This document shows positions 45,287 through 53,812 of a stretch of 64,000 nucleotides of DNA, one piece after another (position 1 is the first letter of the stretch; every line of letters starts with the position of its first letter). The position numbers and the translations under genes are program-made. Below the pieces are notes generated by a model that made no database searches, had not been told where the DNA came from, and worked only from the letters and a program-made list of their open reading frames with translations. Origin of the DNA: Spirochaetota bacterium (GTDB taxonomy: Bacteria > Spirochaetota > UBA4802 > UBA5550); contig JAXGNG010000002.1 in the NCBI GenBank assembly GCA_040768125.1, positions 359,291 through 423,290 on the forward strand, in the 5' to 3' direction.

Positions 45287-45769
45287 ATGGTTGAGCCGCT
45301 TATCAAGAGTCTGCCCGGAGATCTTCTTGAAGAGATCCTTTTCCACGCCCTTCGCACGATCTACCTGTTCGAGCGGTCTGAGGTCGACACCTTTGGCCTC
45401 GATTACCAGCAGATGTACCTCCTGAAAATCCTGAAGAGGAGGTCTCCCCTGAGGGTCAGCGAGATATCCCAGGAACTCCGGATTCCTCCCTTTGCCGGGA
45501 CGCGCCTGGTGCGCCAGCTTGAGTCAGATGGTCTCGTGGAAAAGAAACGGGACTCCAGGGACCGCAGAAATATTTTCGTCGGGATTACCGCGTCGGGATT
45601 TGATACGGTCGGACGCATTGAATCGCATATCAGGGGACTACTCATCGAGCGGCTTTCGCGCTACCCCGAGGAACAGCTGAGGGTGATGATAAACGTGATA
45701 CGGGACCTCGATATGATTCTCGGCGTATCAGATGAGGCCGGAGATGGTGTAACCGGGGAGCTTGCATAG
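45287..45769 (+). CDS. MarR-family transcriptional regulator
   Basis: Winged-helix region LRVSEISQELRIPPFAGTRLVRQLESDGLVEKKRDSRDRRNIFVGIT. Confidence 0.8.
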   Translation: MVEPLIKSLPGDLLEEILFHALRTIYLFERSEVDTFGLDYQQMYLLKILKRRSPLRVSEISQELRIPPFAGTRLVRQLESDGLVEKKRDSRDRRNIFVGITASGFDTVGRIESHIRGLLIERLSRYPEEQLRVMINVIRDLDMILGVSDEAGDGVTGELA

Positions 45770-45803
45770 GGAGTATGCAGAATTATCACACAAGGAGCAT
45801 GTC

Positions 45804-47741
45804 ATGGCGACTTCGTACAAAGGATACATGGGCAGGATGCTGGACATTGATCTCACCACCGGAAAGGTGGGTGAGTACCCGTTAAGCGACCGGGACAGGG
45901 AACTCTTTCTGGGGGGGCGGTACCTCAGCACGAAGATACTCTGGGACGAGCTGAAGCCCGGGATCGATCCGCTCTCCGAAGATAATATACTAGTGGTGAT
46001 GACCTCGCCGCTCACGGGAACCGGAGCGCCCAGCACGAGCAGGTACGATATCTCGGCGAAGAGCCCATTGACCGGAGCGATCGGACATTCAAACAGCGGC
46101 GGCAACTTCGGGATGAACCTGAAACGAGCGGGATGGGACGGGATGCTGGTCCGGGGGAAGGCGAAGAAGCCGGTGTATATCGAGATCAATGACGATACGG
46201 TATCCATTCAAAGCGCCGCGAAGATATGGGGCCTCGATACCCAGGAATCACAGAAGGCTCTTCTCGGGCCCGGGGGCAAGGGGGGGACCATGGCGATCGG
46301 TCCGGCCGGGGAGCACCTTGTAAAATACGCCGCGGTCATTTCGCAGGAGCGCTGTCACGGGAGGACCGGCATGGGGGCCGTGATGGGATCCAAAAACCTG
46401 AAAGGGATGGTGGCCCGCGGCACGAAAAGCGTACAGGTCCATGATCAGAAGAAGTTCAAGGAGACGATCAAAAAGTGGATCAAGCTTCTCCAGGGGCATC
46501 CCGCCACGGGCGAGATCGCTCCGCGCCTTGGCACTGCGTTTTCACTCATCCCCCTCTCGTTACGGAACACCCTGCCGACGAAGAATTTCTCGAAGGGAAG
46601 CTTCGAAAACGCCTACAGCATCAGCGGCGAGCGGCTTGCCGACGAGTTTCTCGTAAAAACCTACGGGTGCATTTCCTGCCCCATTCGCTGCGGACGCGTG
46701 GTCAACATCAAGGGGCATGAAGTCAAGGGCCCCGAGTATGAGATACTCTGCCTGATGGGATCCAACCTCATGATCGATGACATGGAGGCCATCATCAACT
46801 GGAACTACGAGATGGATCTTTACGGCATGGACACCATAAGCACGGGCACGGTCCTCGGCTTCGCTGCGGAGCTCAACGAGAAGGGGCTGTGGAAAAACGG
46901 CATCAAATTTGGCGATAAGAAGTCCATCGGAAAGACGATCAAGGATATCGCCTACCGACGGGGCATCGGCAACGACCTCGCCGAGGGGGTAAGGGCCCTT
47001 TCGAAGAAATACGGGGGTGAGGACTTCGCCCCCCATTCCAAGGGACTCGAAATCGCGGCCTACGAGCCGCGGGGGACCACTGCCCAGGCCCTGGGGTACG
47101 CCACGGCCACCAGGGGGGCCTGTCACCTTGACGCGGGTTACGAGGTCTACATGGAGGTCACGGGGCCGATCACCATGAAGCAGCACCAGTACCGGGGGAA
47201 GCCCCCATGGACCGTCCTCACGCAGAACCTGATGGCCGTGATAAGCGCCGGGGGAAACTGCCTCTTTACCGGGTGGACCTTCGTGCCGAAGCCGGCCTAC
47301 AAGGTCCCCGGGAGCCTTCTGCTCTCGAAACTATTCACCGCCATCATGAGCAACATCGGGTGGCTGATCACCGCCACGATCAAGACCCCGCCCTGGCTCC
47401 TGCGACTTCACCTCCCCTTTCTGCTGCCGCACTCAAAGGCCCTCTCTGAGGCGACGGGTATGAAGATATATTTTGGCGACTGGACGAGGATCGGGGACAG
47501 GGGCTACAATCTTGAAAAGCTTTTCAACCTGAGGGAAGGGATCAGGAAGGACAAGGACACCCTGGCGCGGCGGTTCACCCACGAGCCACTCATAGAGGGA
47601 AGGCCAGAAACGGTCGTGCGCCTTGACAAGATGCTGCCGAAATACTACAGGATCCGGGGATGGGACGCAGACGGGATACCCAAAAAGAAAACATTGAAAA
47701 AATTGAAGCTTGATTTCGTGGACGTTTCACAGCTTCGATAA
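45804..47741 (+). CDS. aldehyde:ferredoxin oxidoreductase (tungsten-containing AOR family)
   Basis: AOR N-terminal domain (MGRMLDIDLTTGKV...LGGR) and C-terminal pterin/FeS-binding Cys motifs; AAGGAG ribosome-binding site. Confidence 0.85.
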   Translation: MATSYKGYMGRMLDIDLTTGKVGEYPLSDRDRELFLGGRYLSTKILWDELKPGIDPLSEDNILVVMTSPLTGTGAPSTSRYDISAKSPLTGAIGHSNSGGNFGMNLKRAGWDGMLVRGKAKKPVYIEINDDTVSIQSAAKIWGLDTQESQKALLGPGGKGGTMAIGPAGEHLVKYAAVISQERCHGRTGMGAVMGSKNLKGMVARGTKSVQVHDQKKFKETIKKWIKLLQGHPATGEIAPRLGTAFSLIPLSLRNTLPTKNFSKGSFENAYSISGERLADEFLVKTYGCISCPIRCGRVVNIKGHEVKGPEYEILCLMGSNLMIDDMEAIINWNYEMDLYGMDTISTGTVLGFAAELNEKGLWKNGIKFGDKKSIGKTIKDIAYRRGIGNDLAEGVRALSKKYGGEDFAPHSKGLEIAAYEPRGTTAQALGYATATRGACHLDAGYEVYMEVTGPITMKQHQYRGKPPWTVLTQNLMAVISAGGNCLFTGWTFVPKPAYKVPGSLLLSKLFTAIMSNIGWLITATIKTPPWLLRLHLPFLLPHSKALSEATGMKIYFGDWTRIGDRGYNLEKLFNLREGIRKDKDTLARRFTHEPLIEGRPETVVRLDKMLPKYYRIRGWDADGIPKKKTLKKLKLDFVDVSQLR

Positions 47742-47753
47742 CGACGCGCGCAC

Positions 47754-47776
47754 GGCCGGGGAAGTCCCCGGCCGCG
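47754..47776. terminator. GC-rich hairpin between the convergent AOR gene and the small ORF (possible bidirectional terminator, no clear U-tract)
   Basis: GGCCGGGG–AAGT–CCCCGGCC perfect 8-bp stem. Confidence 0.35.
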
Positions 47777-47792
47777 TGACGCGCCGGAATCC

Positions 47793-48017
47793 TCAGGCCG
47801 CGTACATGTCGACGTGTTTTATGCCCTTGAGGGGTATCTTTCTTTCCCCGCAATTAATGTCAAAGGTGACGATCATGTCCCCGATGATTGACCTGTTTTT
47901 ATAGAGCTCGATCTCCCTGCCGTCGTCGAGGACAATGACGATATCGAGTCCCTTGATATCAAGATATTTTGACAGCAGCTGTTTGAAGCTCTTCTTCTTC
48001 GTTTTTTTCTGTGCCAT
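47793..48017 (-). CDS. small (74 aa) hypothetical protein
   Basis: Basic N-terminus MAQKKTKKK then DIVIVLDDGREIELYKNRSIIGDMIVTFDI, preceded by an AT-rich promoter-like region. Coding status uncertain. Confidence 0.35.
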   Translation of the reverse strand: MAQKKTKKKSFKQLLSKYLDIKGLDIVIVLDDGREIELYKNRSIIGDMIVTFDINCGERKIPLKGIKHVDMYAA

Positions 48018-48157
48018 GTCGGTTCCTCGATATTCAATAATGGTTTCTGTCAGGACAGCCGGGCTGATTGTTATGTCCCATGTTGAATATCGGTTTATCA
48101 ATTAATATCTTGATTAATTTTTATATATATTGATAGAAAATTGTTAGTACAAATTAA

Positions 48158-49117
48158 TTAATCATCGAAGCCGATTCTCCAGAGGGCCGTGCCCCTGAGG
48201 CGATACCGCCGCGCCAGGTCAGTCAGGAGGGACCGGGTTGTGGCGTCTGAAATATAGAGACGGCAGGTGCTTCCTCCACGGTTGAAATGGGCGAAAAGTG
48301 TTCCCGAAGGATCACGCGTGGCTCCCCGGGCCCTGGCGAGCGGTGCCCCCCGTTTCGCGGATATCGCCTCGGGCTTTCCTCCGCACCAGAGGTATCCGTA
48401 GGCGGGGATCCCGAGCCAGACCTGCTCAGGCTTCATGAACTTCAGGCAATGGCGGATGTTGTCCTCTGCCCAGGCAAGGTCGGTGACCGGGCCGGCTTCG
48501 CTATGGGGCCCATGGTAGTCATAGCACATAATGACCGCCTCGTCGATAAGGTGGCCGATTTTCCTCAAATCGTGAAACCTGCTCCATTTTTCAGGGAAAT
48601 CAACCTGGGGGAAGATGGCCATGGTGATCCTGCCCTTGTAACGCATTCTTATCCGGGTTAAAAGAAGGGCCAGCCTGTCCGCGTCTTCAGGGGGGAGGTA
48701 CTCGAAGTCGAGATGCACCCCCGGGAAGCCCTCGGCATGCGCGAGGTTGGAAATCGTCCTGGCGGCCAGTTCACGCGATTCCTCCGATGCGAGTATGCCG
48801 CGACCCCGGGCGGTCGAGGAAAAGGAAATCAGGGGATAGATGGCGAAACCGTGGCGTTTTGACAGGAAGGTGAGGCGCCTGAGAATATCCCTCCTCACGG
48901 GCGTTATCGTTCCAGGAGATTCGAGCCTGAATCCAGTCAGCGAGACCACGGTATAGCCGGGGAGCGCCTTTTCAAGATAGCCCCCACCGGCGGCTGAGGA
49001 GTGAACCAGGTATCCCCACCGGCAAGGCTCCTCCCCATCGGCGGGCGAGGGACCGCAGCGAAGGAGAAATAAAACCGTCATGGCCGCGATAAATGGTTGC
49101 CTCATGCCATGCATCAT
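48158..49117 (-). CDS. secreted glycoside-hydrolase-family-18-like protein
   Basis: Signal peptide, then a GH18-like catalytic region (GVHLDFEY D-x-E motif) and aromatic-rich barrel segments. Confidence 0.55.
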   Translation of the reverse strand: MMHGMRQPFIAAMTVLFLLRCGPSPADGEEPCRWGYLVHSSAAGGGYLEKALPGYTVVSLTGFRLESPGTITPVRRDILRRLTFLSKRHGFAIYPLISFSSTARGRGILASEESRELAARTISNLAHAEGFPGVHLDFEYLPPEDADRLALLLTRIRMRYKGRITMAIFPQVDFPEKWSRFHDLRKIGHLIDEAVIMCYDYHGPHSEAGPVTDLAWAEDNIRHCLKFMKPEQVWLGIPAYGYLWCGGKPEAISAKRGAPLARARGATRDPSGTLFAHFNRGGSTCRLYISDATTRSLLTDLARRYRLRGTALWRIGFDD

Positions 49118-49304
49118 GGTAGAATAATCCGGTCAGAGCAAGAATAAAACCGGAAAAAGCCTCCGGAGTCGAGGAATCCGGTTGCCACGGAAGGCGGGTT
49201 TTTATTGACAGTGCGGAATTTCCTGGATAATTTTATCAAGGAAGATGTCGGTTTATAAGATAATAATCATAGGGGGAACCACGTCACGTGAGGAACGAAC
49301 AACA

Positions 49305-49748
49305 ATGAAAAGAATATTCCGACATTTTTCAGTTTTCGCCGCTGCACTTATCGTGTCGGCCAACGTCACGTGCGCCAAGTTTGACGATCTTGACGATCAG
49401 AACCCGGTCTTGATCGTTAATATTGAAGTGACCGATCCCGTGGCCATCCCTATCAGCGCGACCCAGAAAGTGCATCTCATCTATTATGTAAACAAGAACT
49501 GGACCAATCCATGGCTTCAGCAGAGTTCAAGCACTTCCACGATCATAAATCCCGTGGTCCTGTCGAAGACACTGTATATCGCCGCATTCTGGGATGCCAA
49601 TTCAAATGGAGTGGTGGATGCGGGGGAACCCTGCACGGGATGGAAAAATGCGGATCACGCAGCGGCGGACGAGCTGGATATGCTCACACTTTTGCCCCTC
49701 GAATGGCGGGAGGTCACCATTACCCTTGATCCAGCGATAGTGTATTGA
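49305..49748 (+). CDS. secreted protein, paralog A of a tandem pair (147 aa)
   Basis: Signal peptide MKRIFRHFSVFAAALIVSANVTC; shared core NKNWTNPW...SSSTS...DANSNGVVDAGEPCTGW with paralog B. Confidence 0.55.
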   Translation: MKRIFRHFSVFAAALIVSANVTCAKFDDLDDQNPVLIVNIEVTDPVAIPISATQKVHLIYYVNKNWTNPWLQQSSSTSTIINPVVLSKTLYIAAFWDANSNGVVDAGEPCTGWKNADHAAADELDMLTLLPLEWREVTITLDPAIVY

Positions 49749-49789
49749 CAGAGGTCCGGTTATAATACCGTTTTCCGTGAGAGGACTAT

Positions 49790-50233
49790 ATGAAAAATAA
49801 TTTCAAACGAGCGGCATTGGCCATGGTGCTTTTCTTTCTTTTCGCCATCGTCAGCGCCTGCGACACGGCCGAGGATAAGAGTCCCTATCTCATCATCAAC
49901 GTCAATCTTGACGATATGGCACATCCGGTGAGCGCGGCGAACAAGCTTTTCCTGGTGTTCTATCTTCATAATAACTGGACGGGTAAATGGCTATCCATGT
50001 CATCTTCGACGCGTATGTTCGTGACGCCACGTCTTACCATCGGGAGCTTTCCGTTTTACTTCGAGGTGATCTACGATGACAACGGCGACGGGGAGCCCTC
50101 GACCGGCGATCTCTACCAGGGGTGGAACGGAGCAATCGACCGGACGTCCGATACGCTTACCACCGTACTTCTTCCCAAGACCGACTTGATGATACTGAAC
50201 ATTGATCTTGACAACAATGGCGTAATGCCTTAA
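49790..50233 (+). CDS. lipoprotein, paralog B of the tandem pair (147 aa)
   Basis: Lipobox-like AIVSAC; core HNNWTGKW...SSSTR...DDNGDGEPSTGDLYQGW aligns with paralog A. Strong TATAAT at ~49763. Confidence 0.6.
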   Translation: MKNNFKRAALAMVLFFLFAIVSACDTAEDKSPYLIINVNLDDMAHPVSAANKLFLVFYLHNNWTGKWLSMSSSTRMFVTPRLTIGSFPFYFEVIYDDNGDGEPSTGDLYQGWNGAIDRTSDTLTTVLLPKTDLMILNIDLDNNGVMP

Positions 50234-50316
50234 TCAACACCGCCTCACATGGTGCGCCGGCGGGGCCCCGCCCACGCCGTCAGCCCTGGGAATAAGCGAT
50301 GCCGGAGGGGAGGGCA

Positions 50317-50631
50317 ATGACGGGACTTTCCGCCGATGAGAAGCGACGCCTCAAGACAAGGGCCCACCATCTCAGGCCGGTGGTGTATATCGGCCGTGGC
50401 GGCATGAGCGGCGCCGTGATAGAGGCGACCGACAGGGCCCTGGGTGACCACGGACTTATCAAGGTGAAATTCATAGACTGCAAGGATGAGAAGAAAGATC
50501 TCGCCGAAGAGCTTGCAGGGTCGACGGGAAGCTTTCTGGTTACGATCATCGGAAATATCGCCATTCTCTTCCGGCCTGATGATGTTACACCCGCCGCAGG
50601 AAATACCGGCCGCATCCCGCATTCTTCTTGA
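50317..50631 (+). CDS. yhbY: YhbY/CRS1-type CRM-domain RNA-binding protein
   Basis: LSADEKRRLKTRAHHLRPVVYIGRGGMSGAVIEATDRALGDHGLIKVKF matches YhbY. Confidence 0.75.
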   Translation: MTGLSADEKRRLKTRAHHLRPVVYIGRGGMSGAVIEATDRALGDHGLIKVKFIDCKDEKKDLAEELAGSTGSFLVTIIGNIAILFRPDDVTPAAGNTGRIPHSS

Positions 50632-50722
50632 CAATAGCCGCGACCCTCTTCAAGTTGCCGCAATGGAGCGGCGCCCATGCCGCTGCGAAAGGGACACGGG
50701 GCGCGCGCCGGGGAGGTAGATC

Positions 50723-51736
50723 ATGAAAAAGTACAACGTCGTCATCATGGGCGCAACGGGAGCGGTGGGTATTGAATTCAGGAAAATCCTGCTTGAGCGC
50801 AACTTCCCCGTGGGATCGATGAAATTCCTCGGATTGACCACCGTGGGAAGGGAGTACGATTTCGGGGGACGTACGGTGCGTTCCGAAGCCGTCGTTGACG
50901 GCTGCTTCAGGGGGTCGGAAATCGCGCTCTTTTCAGCCGGCGGCGATATAAGCAGGAAGGTTGCCCGGCGGGCAGTGGAGGAGGGGTGCGTCGTTATCGA
51001 CAACAGCTCGGCGTGGCGGATGGATCCCGATGTGCCCCTCGTGGTTCCAGAGGTCAACCCTGACGATGTGGACCGTCATGCGGGGATCATCGCGAATCCC
51101 AACTGTTCCACGATACAGATGGTGGTCGCCCTCAAGCCGATCCACGACGCCGCGCGCATCAGGAGGGTCGTCGTCAGCACCTACCAGGCGGTATCGGGCA
51201 CGGGCCTGAAGGCGATTGAAGAATGCATGGACCAGACCGGCGACATCGTCGCCGGGAGGAACGTCCCGGCTCCCAAGGTGTATCCTCACCGGATAGCCTT
51301 CAACGTCCTCCCCCAGATCGATGTCTTCCTTGAAAACGGTTATACCAAGGAAGAGATGAAAATGGTGAACGAAACCAGGAAGATCATGGGTGATGATTCC
51401 ATAGGGGTGACCGCCACCACGGTCAGGGTCCCTGTGCTTTACGGCCATTCAGAATCGGTGAACGTGGAAACGGAGAAAAAGCTTTCAGCGGGCGAGGCAA
51501 GAGAACTGCTCGCGGGAGCCCCGGGCGTGACGGTGATCGATGACCCGGGGTCAAAGGAGTATCCCATGCCTATCCACGCGGCCGGGAAGGACGATGTATT
51601 TGTGGGCCGTATAAGAGAGGATGATTCCATACCCAACGGGATCAACCTCTGGATCGTATCCGATAACATCAGGAAAGGAGCGGCGCTCAACGCGATCCAG
51701 ATCGCCGAACTCCTGATCAAAAAAGGGAAAATCTAA
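50723..51736 (+). CDS. asd: aspartate-semialdehyde dehydrogenase
   Basis: MGATGAVG N-terminus, active-site IANPNCSTI, and the YQAVSGTG block. Confidence 0.9.
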   Translation: MKKYNVVIMGATGAVGIEFRKILLERNFPVGSMKFLGLTTVGREYDFGGRTVRSEAVVDGCFRGSEIALFSAGGDISRKVARRAVEEGCVVIDNSSAWRMDPDVPLVVPEVNPDDVDRHAGIIANPNCSTIQMVVALKPIHDAARIRRVVVSTYQAVSGTGLKAIEECMDQTGDIVAGRNVPAPKVYPHRIAFNVLPQIDVFLENGYTKEEMKMVNETRKIMGDDSIGVTATTVRVPVLYGHSESVNVETEKKLSAGEARELLAGAPGVTVIDDPGSKEYPMPIHAAGKDDVFVGRIREDDSIPNGINLWIVSDNIRKGAALNAIQIAELLIKKGKI

Positions 51737-52087: not shown

Positions 52088-53812
52088 ATGAAAAAAATTC
52101 TTTGCTATTTCGATCCTACTGTGAAAAGGATCCTGGTTGAAAAAGTAACGGAAAGCGGAGAGAAAAAGATCGTCCTCTCGTCGCCCCACAATTTCGTGTA
52201 TACATCTGAGATCGTAGCCAGGGTGATCAATATCGACGACGAAGAGCAGATCCCCACCAGGCTTGATCCAGGGTACAGCTACTATCGCGTCCTGGATTTC
52301 CAGACGATCAAGGCGGATACCGGAATATACTACGATGAGTCGGCAAACGCCTACAAGGCAGCGGAATACGGTTTCGTGGTTCTTGATAACCAGAAGCTGC
52401 GGTGGATATCGCCCCTCTCGGTGAGCAGGGACAAGCTGAAGGCCTACTATTCCATCTACCCCACCAAAACGGGAAGGATCCCCGCCTATGCGGACATCGA
52501 GGAGGCCCTGCACCGTTACAAGATACTGTCACGCGTGGAGAAGCGTCAGGTCGAGGAACAGCTCCAGTCGATCAATCCCGACCAGCCGAGATTCACCAGG
52601 ATACTCGTTGCCCAGGGGAAGGAGCCGGTAAACGGGCACGATGAATACTTTCTTCCGCTCCTCAATTTCCAGAAGAAGGCCGGAGAAATCAAGGAGGACG
52701 GGAGCATTGATTTCAAGGAGGTCGGCTCAATAGTCGAGGTCAAGAAGGGCCAGGATATACTGAAGAGGGTACCGGGCGTCAAGGCCGTTGACGGGTATGA
52801 TATATACGGGGATAAATCCATCGCCAAGTTCGAGCGGGTCGAGGGATATGCGAAAGGAGAAAACATAGAGCAGGGCCCCTCTGATGAAAATATCTTCGTC
52901 GCCTCGATCGATGGATGCCTCGACGTGGACGGAAGGAGGGTCTCGGTTCTTCCCATCGCGTTTATACACGGCGACGTGAATTACGAAACGGGCAACATCG
53001 ATTTTGACGGATCGGTCCACATAATGGGGTCGGTGCTTCCAGGTTTCAGCGTGAAGGCGAAGGGCGACGTTATCGTTGAAAAAAACGTCGACGACTCTCA
53101 TATTGAGGCGCAGGGCGACATCACGGTGAAGATGGGAGTCGTGGGCAAGGAAAACGCGGTGCTCGTCGCCGGGGGAAAAGTTGTGGCCAAGTACCTCCTG
53201 AACGCCAGGGTGGAGGCGGCCGGCGAAATCATCGTGGATGATTCGATAATAAATTCTAACGTCTTTTCCAACTTTCGGGTAAGCGTTGTGGCCCGGCAGG
53301 GAAAGATAATCGGGGGGAAGACCACGGCCCTCTACGAGATAGTGATCAACGTGTCAGGGTCGCCAAACGAAACCGAGACCCAGCTTTCCGTGGGAAGGAA
53401 CCTTTTCATCGAGAAGGAGCTGGAGGAAGTCCAGAAGGAGATCATCACGTGGAGAAAGGCGGTTGATGAATCGATGCGCCAGCTCAAGGTGAGTTTCGGC
53501 GAAGCGGTCTTCGAAAATCCCAAGGAATACATCTCGAAGCTTCCCGGCATGAAAAAAAAGAACTGTCTTCTCATGCTCAAGGATTTGAGCGACAAGAACA
53601 GCGAACTCAAGAAACACCTTGAGGTGAGCAGGGAGATCCAGGAGCGGCTGAAGCTGGAACGTGAACCGTGCATAATCATTAAAAACAAGGCCTATCCCGG
53701 CACCATCGTCAGCATAAAGAAGAGCATCAAACGCGTTGAAAGCATCATCGACAACGTGAAATACTACGAGGACACGGAAGCGAAGATCATTCGATTCAGT
53801 CCCGCAGTATGA
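52088..53812 (+). CDS. DUF342 (FapA-like) family protein
   Basis: 574 aa with the DUF342 beta-helix-like repeats (GDVNYETGNIDFDGSVHIMGSV..., GDVIVEKNVDDSHIEAQGDITV..., GKVVAKYLLNARVEAAGEIIV) and a C-terminal coiled coil. Confidence 0.7.
   Translation: MKKILCYFDPTVKRILVEKVTESGEKKIVLSSPHNFVYTSEIVARVINIDDEEQIPTRLDPGYSYYRVLDFQTIKADTGIYYDESANAYKAAEYGFVVLDNQKLRWISPLSVSRDKLKAYYSIYPTKTGRIPAYADIEEALHRYKILSRVEKRQVEEQLQSINPDQPRFTRILVAQGKEPVNGHDEYFLPLLNFQKKAGEIKEDGSIDFKEVGSIVEVKKGQDILKRVPGVKAVDGYDIYGDKSIAKFERVEGYAKGENIEQGPSDENIFVASIDGCLDVDGRRVSVLPIAFIHGDVNYETGNIDFDGSVHIMGSVLPGFSVKAKGDVIVEKNVDDSHIEAQGDITVKMGVVGKENAVLVAGGKVVAKYLLNARVEAAGEIIVDDSIINSNVFSNFRVSVVARQGKIIGGKTTALYEIVINVSGSPNETETQLSVGRNLFIEKELEEVQKEIITWRKAVDESMRQLKVSFGEAVFENPKEYISKLPGMKKKNCLLMLKDLSDKNSELKKHLEVSREIQERLKLEREPCIIIKNKAYPGTIVSIKKSIKRVESIIDNVKYYEDTEAKIIRFSPAV

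Follow-up and report, generated by a model that had tools for sequence, protein, structure and literature searches.

The window analysed here is a stretch of 64,000 nucleotides (nt) from contig JAXGNG010000002.1 of a Spirochaetota bacterium. It contains two adjacent genes, A and B, each of which encodes a precursor of 147 amino acids (aa). With a probability of about one half, A and B are two cell-envelope modules, stabilized by Ca2+ and tethered by lipid, that have no enzymatic activity, serve in binding or scaffolding and probably act together. In the proposed mechanism, a signal peptide would export both proteins, and cleavage and lipidation would take place at an invariant Cys. A short acidic linker would tether each protein to a cell-envelope membrane, and each would fold into a single seven-stranded transthyretin/prealbumin-like β-sandwich. 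The Dx[ND]x[ND]G...[ED] loop connecting strands 5 and 6 would chelate one Ca2+ and rigidify the domain as in the staphylococcal Sdr B-repeats. The paralogs would finally work together as binding or scaffolding modules. Joint action is suggested because A and B are always adjacent, occur as one of each, are probably co-transcribed and keep distinct subfamily motifs. A binding or scaffolding role is suggested because the domain has no recognizable catalytic site.

BLASTP aligns A and B with 31% identity over 144 aa. The expectation value (E) of 3e-21 is far above noise level and shows that the paralogy is real, as had been proposed in an earlier annotation made without database searches (the sequence-only reading). 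That annotation let the feature begin at 49199, which falls into the promoter-like, intergenic region upstream and outside any gene. The sequence motifs it listed are all present in both proteins: NWT..W and SSST are common to A and B, and the block rich in Asp, Asn and Gly reads DANSNGVVDAGEPCTGW in A and DDNGDGEPSTGDLYQGW in B. When all open reading frames (ORFs) of 40 aa or more were taken from the six frames of the window, the pattern D.[DN].[DN]G.[LIVMCP][DNSTE]..[DE] of the loop was present in A and B only, and these two alone were matched by the hidden Markov model of the family. Gene A starts with MKRIF, preceded by a GAGGA ribosome-binding site, and the public gene call (P0007) also has 147 aa. 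With a start at the in-frame ATG of position 49245, the protein would be 20 residues longer (167 aa); this extension is not conserved in L001, one of the two closest relatives. The equal length of the two proteins, also pointed out earlier, holds for the pair in the window and is partly a coincidence, since orthologs that are called or start with ATG comprise 142–156 aa. For example, the ORFs read in Spirochaetes bacterium RBG_13_51_14 (L014) have 149 and 152 aa.

Both N-termini consist of a basic region, a hydrophobic core and a lipobox as in substrates of signal peptidase II (pattern [LVI][ASTVI][GAS]-C), which is canonical in B and has a non-canonical residue at position −1 in A. Precursor A begins with the basic segment MKRIFRH, followed by a hydrophobic stretch and NVT-C, and its residues 2–20 are predicted to be helical. 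Precursor B begins with MKNNFKR, followed by a hydrophobic stretch and IVSA-C. The lipobox Cys (Cys23 in A, Cys24 in B) is invariant in 31/31 aligned family sequences. The signal peptides of A orthologs end in ASC, LSC, HAC and NSC, with SC, AC or GC at position −1 and the Cys. Export of both proteins and the lipobox of B had been recognized before, whereas the assignment of a lipobox to B alone does not stand: the signal peptide of A also ends in the family-invariant Cys, thus both proteins look like lipoproteins. Judging from these signal peptides, A and B are both probably lipoproteins.

At the anchor, B reads C-D-[TS] in 13/13 orthologs from genomes, and most of the remaining B-type sequences do likewise. 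The tether of A continues with C-[ASGN]-K...DDLDDQ. Accordingly, both tethers are acidic near the anchor. In fusions of the Borrelia model lipoprotein OspA, negative patches proximal to the anchor lead to retention in the inner membrane (PMC2987989). By analogy with this one spirochaete model, a subsurface location of A and B is somewhat more likely than surface display. The enterobacterial sorting rule for Asp at position +2 was considered for B and is not relied on, as it is reported to be inapplicable in Borrelia (PMC2987989).

AlphaFold2 models based on the family alignment have a predicted local distance difference test score (pLDDT) of 86.5 and a predicted template modelling score (pTM) of 0.72 for A, and 84.3 and 0.73, respectively, for B. 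The topology is the same in both models: seven strands follow the signal helix, which is the only helix. The predicted fold of A and B is a seven-stranded transthyretin/prealbumin-like β-sandwich, superposable on transthyretin-like and carboxypeptidase-regulatory domains. Structural neighbours are the NOMO, CnaB and starch-binding CBM20 domains, the lipoprotein pilotins ExsB and AspS, TssJ, the Bacteroides surface lipoproteins DUF4876, DUF1812 and DUF3823, the N-terminal domain of SleC, and pilins. A Foldseek search against the PDB yielded nothing below E = 1e-3. Neither a close structural relative nor an enzyme-like site was recognized. An isopeptide Lys-Asn/Asp pair of the CnaB type was rejected, as strand 1 has no conserved Lys.

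The putative calcium loop joins strands 5 and 6, i.e. residues 90–97 and 109–112 in A and residues 89–95 and 108–111 in B. Its pLDDT is 94–96 in both models. The EF-hand consensus (PF00036/PF13405, PS00018) comprises 12 residues, with ligands at positions 1, 3, 5, 7, 9 and 12, Gly at position 6 and a hydrophobic residue at position 8. In A, the loop fits this consensus at positions 1, 3, 5, 6, 8, 9 and 12 (D1, N3, N5, G6, V8, D9 and E12), and the sole departure from PROSITE PS00018 is a Pro right after the loop. The loop of B fits the consensus except for Pro at position 8. Across the whole family, both subfamilies included, Asp97 and Gly107 are invariant and Gly102 is conserved to at least 90%. 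Within the A-type set, Asp105 is invariant, and Asn101 and Glu108 are conserved to at least 90%. Most A-type sequences keep D-x-[ND]-x-[ND]-G-[VIT]-[VLP]-D-x-G-[ED], and in a few of them, an insertion repeats part of the loop. B-type loops consist of D-x-[DNT]-G-[DNS]-G, a variable stretch and then G-D or V-D. Most likely the loop chelates one Ca2+, to judge by these patterns, and this is likelier in A than in B.

Comparison of the family profile with the sequences in the PDB returned only EF-hand loops (GCAP3, SCaMC-1 and calcineurin B); these matches are weak and of motif length (best E = 0.0099). The large proteins found by an exhaustive profile search match only profile positions ~86–125, which correspond to the strand and the loop. 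Large repeat proteins with this strand-plus-loop element match the Pfam family SdrD_B (6e-110), or else DUF2141 or EF-hand_6. In the Sdr B-repeats, a functional Ca2+ loop of the EF-hand type compacts and stabilizes the protein (PMC3775735). The Dx[DN]xDG motif is described as binding Ca2+ almost identically in no fewer than twelve folds that are unrelated to each other (PMC3123361).

Conservation of the ORFs as proteins in relatives, which the sequence-only reading presupposed, was confirmed. A collection of 5.8 billion sequences contains 29 relatives of A and 6 of B; the smaller number for B results from the word prefilter of the search and the faster divergence of B. When 1.84 billion representatives were searched exhaustively with the HMMER profile, 225 matches were obtained, of which ~28 are full-length small proteins (99–260 aa). 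All relatives with an identifiable source organism belong to metagenome-assembled Spirochaetota, one of them labelled Leptospirales. In 18/18 loci that were fetched and searched by tblastn, an A-type match is directly followed by one of the B-type. These loci represent 13 distinct genomes besides that of the window, plus a fourteenth contig (L004) with B and a frameshifted A-type copy at the same position. Each of the 13 distinct related Spirochaetota genomes has exactly one A and one B, also at the same position.

A and B are 24–32% identical within every genome. The A-type is characterized by KVTGDLDDQ.P, NWTNPW, GEPCTG[YW], PLEW and a C-terminal VY, the B-type by CD[TS], PY.[IV]INV, GD.YQGW and MILN.DLD. 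As the subfamilies are distinct and this far apart in every genome, the duplication predates the radiation of the clade. Pairwise dN/dS values (the ratio of nonsynonymous to synonymous substitution rates, Nei-Gojobori method) are 0.11–0.30 for A and 0.12–0.28 for B, with synonymous sites saturated in the deeper pairs. A and B are under purifying selection, and the pairwise estimates give no sign of positive selection. Identity to the relatives is 42–56% for A and 41–50% for B, similar to the neighbouring GH18-family protein (41–51%) and YhbY (48–58%). The housekeeping neighbours asd (~80%), aldehyde:ferredoxin oxidoreductase (AOR, 77–83%) and FapA (71–76%) are better conserved in the same relatives. 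A and B are thus moderately fast-evolving yet clearly constrained, have a fixed copy number and do not form a diversifying or copy-variable array.

Several variants of the domain were observed. Four proteins (P0065, P0067, P0069 and P0099) form a hybrid third subtype, in which the N-terminal half resembles B (DRYVIINVNY, LWAV) and the segment behind the loop, PC[IL]G[FY], resembles A. P0037 and the region 1161–1795 of L004 represent the A-type with a C-terminal extension of ~110 aa (FTVxxNQA...PIAFTVVFGxAxxPATFTxADITD), which resembles immunoglobulin-like modules of large surface proteins. The A-type copy of L004 is split by its frameshift, which may be an assembly error. In at least one case, the whole A/B domain is also a module of a large multidomain protein (P0076; probability of 92.6% over ~100 residues).

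Several points weigh against Ca2+-stabilized lipoprotein modules that act jointly. The case for Ca2+ binding comes from sequence only. The distal part of the B loop varies in length (DINGDGVGSGD has 11 residues), hence the canonical 12-residue site is not maintained there. The A protein of the window has Thr at position −1 of the lipobox, which the classic pattern bars. Cys110 and His118 are kept by A-type proteins, yet they have no use in this explanation. Finally, the fact that the two genes stay side by side says little about a joint function, since collinearity in the clade extends to the entire region and its unrelated housekeeping genes.

The main alternative is that A and B are glycan-binding accessory lipoproteins, CBM-like or SusE/F-like, which present chitin or glycans derived from peptidoglycan to the exported GH18 protein. 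This is possible and rather unlikely. The GH18 gene (PF00704) is oriented head-to-head with A in 12/13 distinct related genomes, and it evolves at a rate like that of A and B. The CBM20, DUF4876, DUF1812, DUF3823 and SleC domains among the structural neighbours would suit a glycan ligand, as would the aromatic residues that are kept: Trp66 and Trp70 family-wide, and Trp134 and the Tyr or Trp after Gly112 in the A-type. On the other hand, RBG_13_51_14 has an intact A-B pair with neither GH18 nor the MarR-AOR genes at the locus, and the adjacency is little informative in a region that is collinear as a whole.

The sequence-only reading regarded A and B as tandem diversifying duplicates with a role at the surface, in adhesion or in host interaction. 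Such antigens or adhesins are improbable. They would agree with small exported paralogs that evolve ~2.5–3 times faster at the protein level than the housekeeping neighbours, with pilins and CnaB adhesin domains among the fold neighbours and with the extra domain appended to A in one lineage (P0037). The expected copy-number variation was looked for and a fixed pair was found, however, and the duplication is old, preceding all related genomes sampled. The low dN/dS values speak against diversification as well. Related genomes are mostly labelled Spirochaetota or Spirochaetes only, and no host association was seen. By the analogy with the OspA fusions, the acidic tethers argue against surface exposure. 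Thus, the proposed surface role is unsupported.

It is quite improbable that A and B are pilotin-like or TssJ-like accessory lipoproteins that dock or assemble an envelope machine (a secretin, a type VI secretion system (T6SS) or flagellar parts). Pilotins and TssJ are structural neighbours, but they score no better than many unrelated sandwiches, and known pilotins have no Ca2+ loop. The conserved neighbourhood contains no secretin, T6SS or pilus gene, and downstream, FapA and TatA lie in a block of collinear housekeeping genes.

Similarly doubtful is the idea that the A-type, by means of Cys110 and His118, acts as an enzyme or metallochaperone dependent on a thiol or a metal and that B is its non-catalytic partner. 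In 14/14 A-type sequences, Cys110, Thr111 and Gly112 are kept without exception, and the same applies to His118 in 13 A orthologs derived from genomes; B lacks both Cys110 and His118. Divergent A-type members, however, are devoid of the Cys (DPYTG in P0040, DPAMG in P0044 and EPAMG in P0055) or of the His (P0018). In the Pfam, structural and PDB profile comparisons, no known Cys/His enzyme or cupredoxin site is similar. A cupredoxin-like copper site formed by Cys, His and Met was rejected for A, because these residues are not suitably spaced and the Met varies. The least probable proposal, a speculative one, places the two paralogs in different membranes: B would remain in the inner membrane through its conserved Cys-Asp-[Thr/Ser] start, and A would reach the outer membrane. 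As a heterodimer that depends on Ca2+, they would bridge the periplasm of the spirochaete or act as its spacer, with Cys110/His118 of A as a second redox- or metal-sensitive site; this would be a previously undescribed, lineage-specific minimal envelope tether.

The features of the locus are listed in Table 1. The A-B spacer has 25–42 nt in six orthologous loci measured. This length is consistent with co-transcription, and A and B are probably co-transcribed. Both closest relatives, L001 and L010, retain the promoter-like element that precedes A, and its sequence suggests a role as promoter. A consensus promoter scan did not report the element because its spacer has 15 nt and the scan requires 16–18. 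ORFs on the opposite strand inside A and B were rejected as genes, as they are short and called in no relative. An Rfam scan of both strands of positions 47500–51000 revealed no credible RNA.

The conserved neighbourhood comprises MarR, AOR, an ORF of 74 aa (minus strand), GH18 (minus strand), A, B, YhbY, asd, FapA and TatA. Across the related Spirochaetota clade, gene order is preserved in a block that includes both flanks (AOR and FapA/TatA). The 74-aa ORF (MAQKKTKKKSFKQLL...HVDMYAA) has no Pfam match and is 76–96% identical across all related genomes. It is conserved about as well as the housekeeping neighbours and far better than A, B and GH18. In RBG_13_51_14, this ORF is directly head-to-head with the A-B pair.

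Table 1. Positions of the features discussed, counted from the first nucleotide of the window.
Feature	Position	Strand	Remarks
Aldehyde:ferredoxin oxidoreductase	45762-47741	+	AFOR_N/AFOR_C in orthologs; preceded by a MarR regulator
74-aa ORF	47793-48017	-	
Exported 319-aa GH18-family protein	48158-49117	-	PF00704, E = 6e-17; divergent from gene A
Promoter-like element	49205-49231	+	Read from sequence: TTGACA, 15-nt spacer, GATAAT with TG before it; upstream of gene A
Gene A	49305-49748	+	From the ORF list; putative 147-aa lipoprotein precursor, A-type subfamily (EPCTG[WY], PLEW motifs)
Signal peptide of A	49305-49373	+	Predicted; ends with ANVT-C, lipobox-like; Cys23 encoded at 49371-49373
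Candidate Ca2+ loop of A	49593-49628	+	D97-A-N-S-N-G-V-V-D-A-G-E108; 12-residue Ca2+-loop consensus of the EF-hand type, strands 5-6
A-type-specific Cys110...His118	49632-49658	+	Directly after the loop; B has Tyr/Gln there and no His
A-B spacer (41 nt)	49749-49789	+	From sequence; GAGAGGA ribosome-binding site for B
Gene B	49790-50233	+	From the ORF list; putative 147-aa lipoprotein precursor, B-type subfamily (CD[TS] tether, GD.YQGW, MILN.DLD)
Signal peptide of B	49790-49861	+	Predicted; canonical lipobox IVSA-C; Cys24 encoded at 49859-49861, Asp at +2
Candidate Ca2+ loop of B	50075-50110	+	D96-D-N-G-D-G-E-P-S-T-G-D107; Dx[DN]xDG core kept, distal part length-variable among orthologs
FapA/DUF342 protein	52088-53812	+	Followed by TatA

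If A and B are Ca2+-stabilized lipoprotein modules, they represent a small unnamed family with ~28 representatives, seen only in uncultured Spirochaetota where the source is named. A lipoprotein with a transthyretin-like sandwich would then be a further structural context for the Dx[DN]xDG calcium loop. The pair is a small, well-behaved target for studying lipoprotein sorting in spirochaetes. No long-standing question is opened and the practical value lies mainly in annotation, for which the name 'Ca2+-loop beta-sandwich lipoprotein, A-type/B-type' is proposed as a replacement for 'hypothetical protein'.

The earlier statement that A and B belong to no recognized family agrees with the Pfam and NCBIfam scans, which gave nothing significant for A and B or for all 31 family members. 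Its comparison with EF-hand- or dockerin-type loops holds at the level of sequence: the loop of A conforms to the 12-residue consensus and the sequence matches in the PDB are EF-hand loops. It does not extend to the structure, since the predicted fold is all-β and the loop is located between strands 5 and 6, which makes it neither an EF-hand nor a dockerin. Each protein has a single loop, and the flanking helices and paired hands of the helix-loop-helix arrangement are absent. Pfam EF-hand_1 is matched by 1/31 members (E = 0.056). Type I dockerins consist of two tandem segments of ~22 residues, each with a Ca2+ loop followed by a helix. This duplicated segment is missing in A and B, and dockerin type I (PF00404) was rejected in view of the single loop, the all-β fold and the lack of a Pfam match at E up to 10.

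The strand-plus-loop element recurs in the B-repeats of SdrD. SdrD_B (PF17210) has no Pfam match to A, B or the 31 members, and only ~20 residues in the vicinity of the loop are similar. SdrD_B domains occur in Gram-positive surface proteins, have a prealbumin fold of the CnaB type and are arranged as tandem units in an LPXTG-anchored stalk, whereas in A and B the loop follows strand 5 of what is probably a single-domain lipoprotein. The small transthyretin-like lipoproteins ExsB, AspS, TssJ, DUF4876 and DUF3823 share 5–15% identity and no motif with A and B. They have no Ca2+ loop, and no partner machinery is encoded near A and B.

DUF2141 (PF09912) comprises small exported β-sandwich proteins of Bacteroidota and Proteobacteria. 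Like A and B, these proteins have ~135–150 aa and an N-terminal export signal. The C-terminal halves also have the same order of elements: a hydrophobic strand ending in Asp, an x-N-x-N-G-x-x-D loop, G-x-P...G and a final strand. An hhalign comparison of the A/B family with 25 PF09912 proteins resulted in a probability of 64% (E = 6.4e-5) over 48 columns, restricted to the C-terminal half. Intermediates such as P0060 and P0061 match the profiles of both families. The DUF2141 Pfam model matches neither A nor B at E up to 10 and none of the 31 members at E up to 1. The N-terminal half of A and B is not aligned and the DUF2141 loop is three residues longer. Of the DUF2141 motif H-D-x-N-x-N...D...G-I-P-x-E...N...G-P, A and B share only D-x-N-x-N-G-x-x-D, and where DUF2141 has its hallmark GIPKEGYGFSNN...GPP, the A-type has GEPCTG[YW] and the B-type GD.YQGW; A and B of the window read GEPCTGW and GDLYQGW. 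These sequence similarities make DUF2141 a possible remote relative rather than a family to which A and B belong, and a plausible remote link to this uncharacterized family would follow if A and B are what is proposed here. A and B constitute a small unnamed family of modest interest within the known transthyretin/prealbumin-like superfamily.
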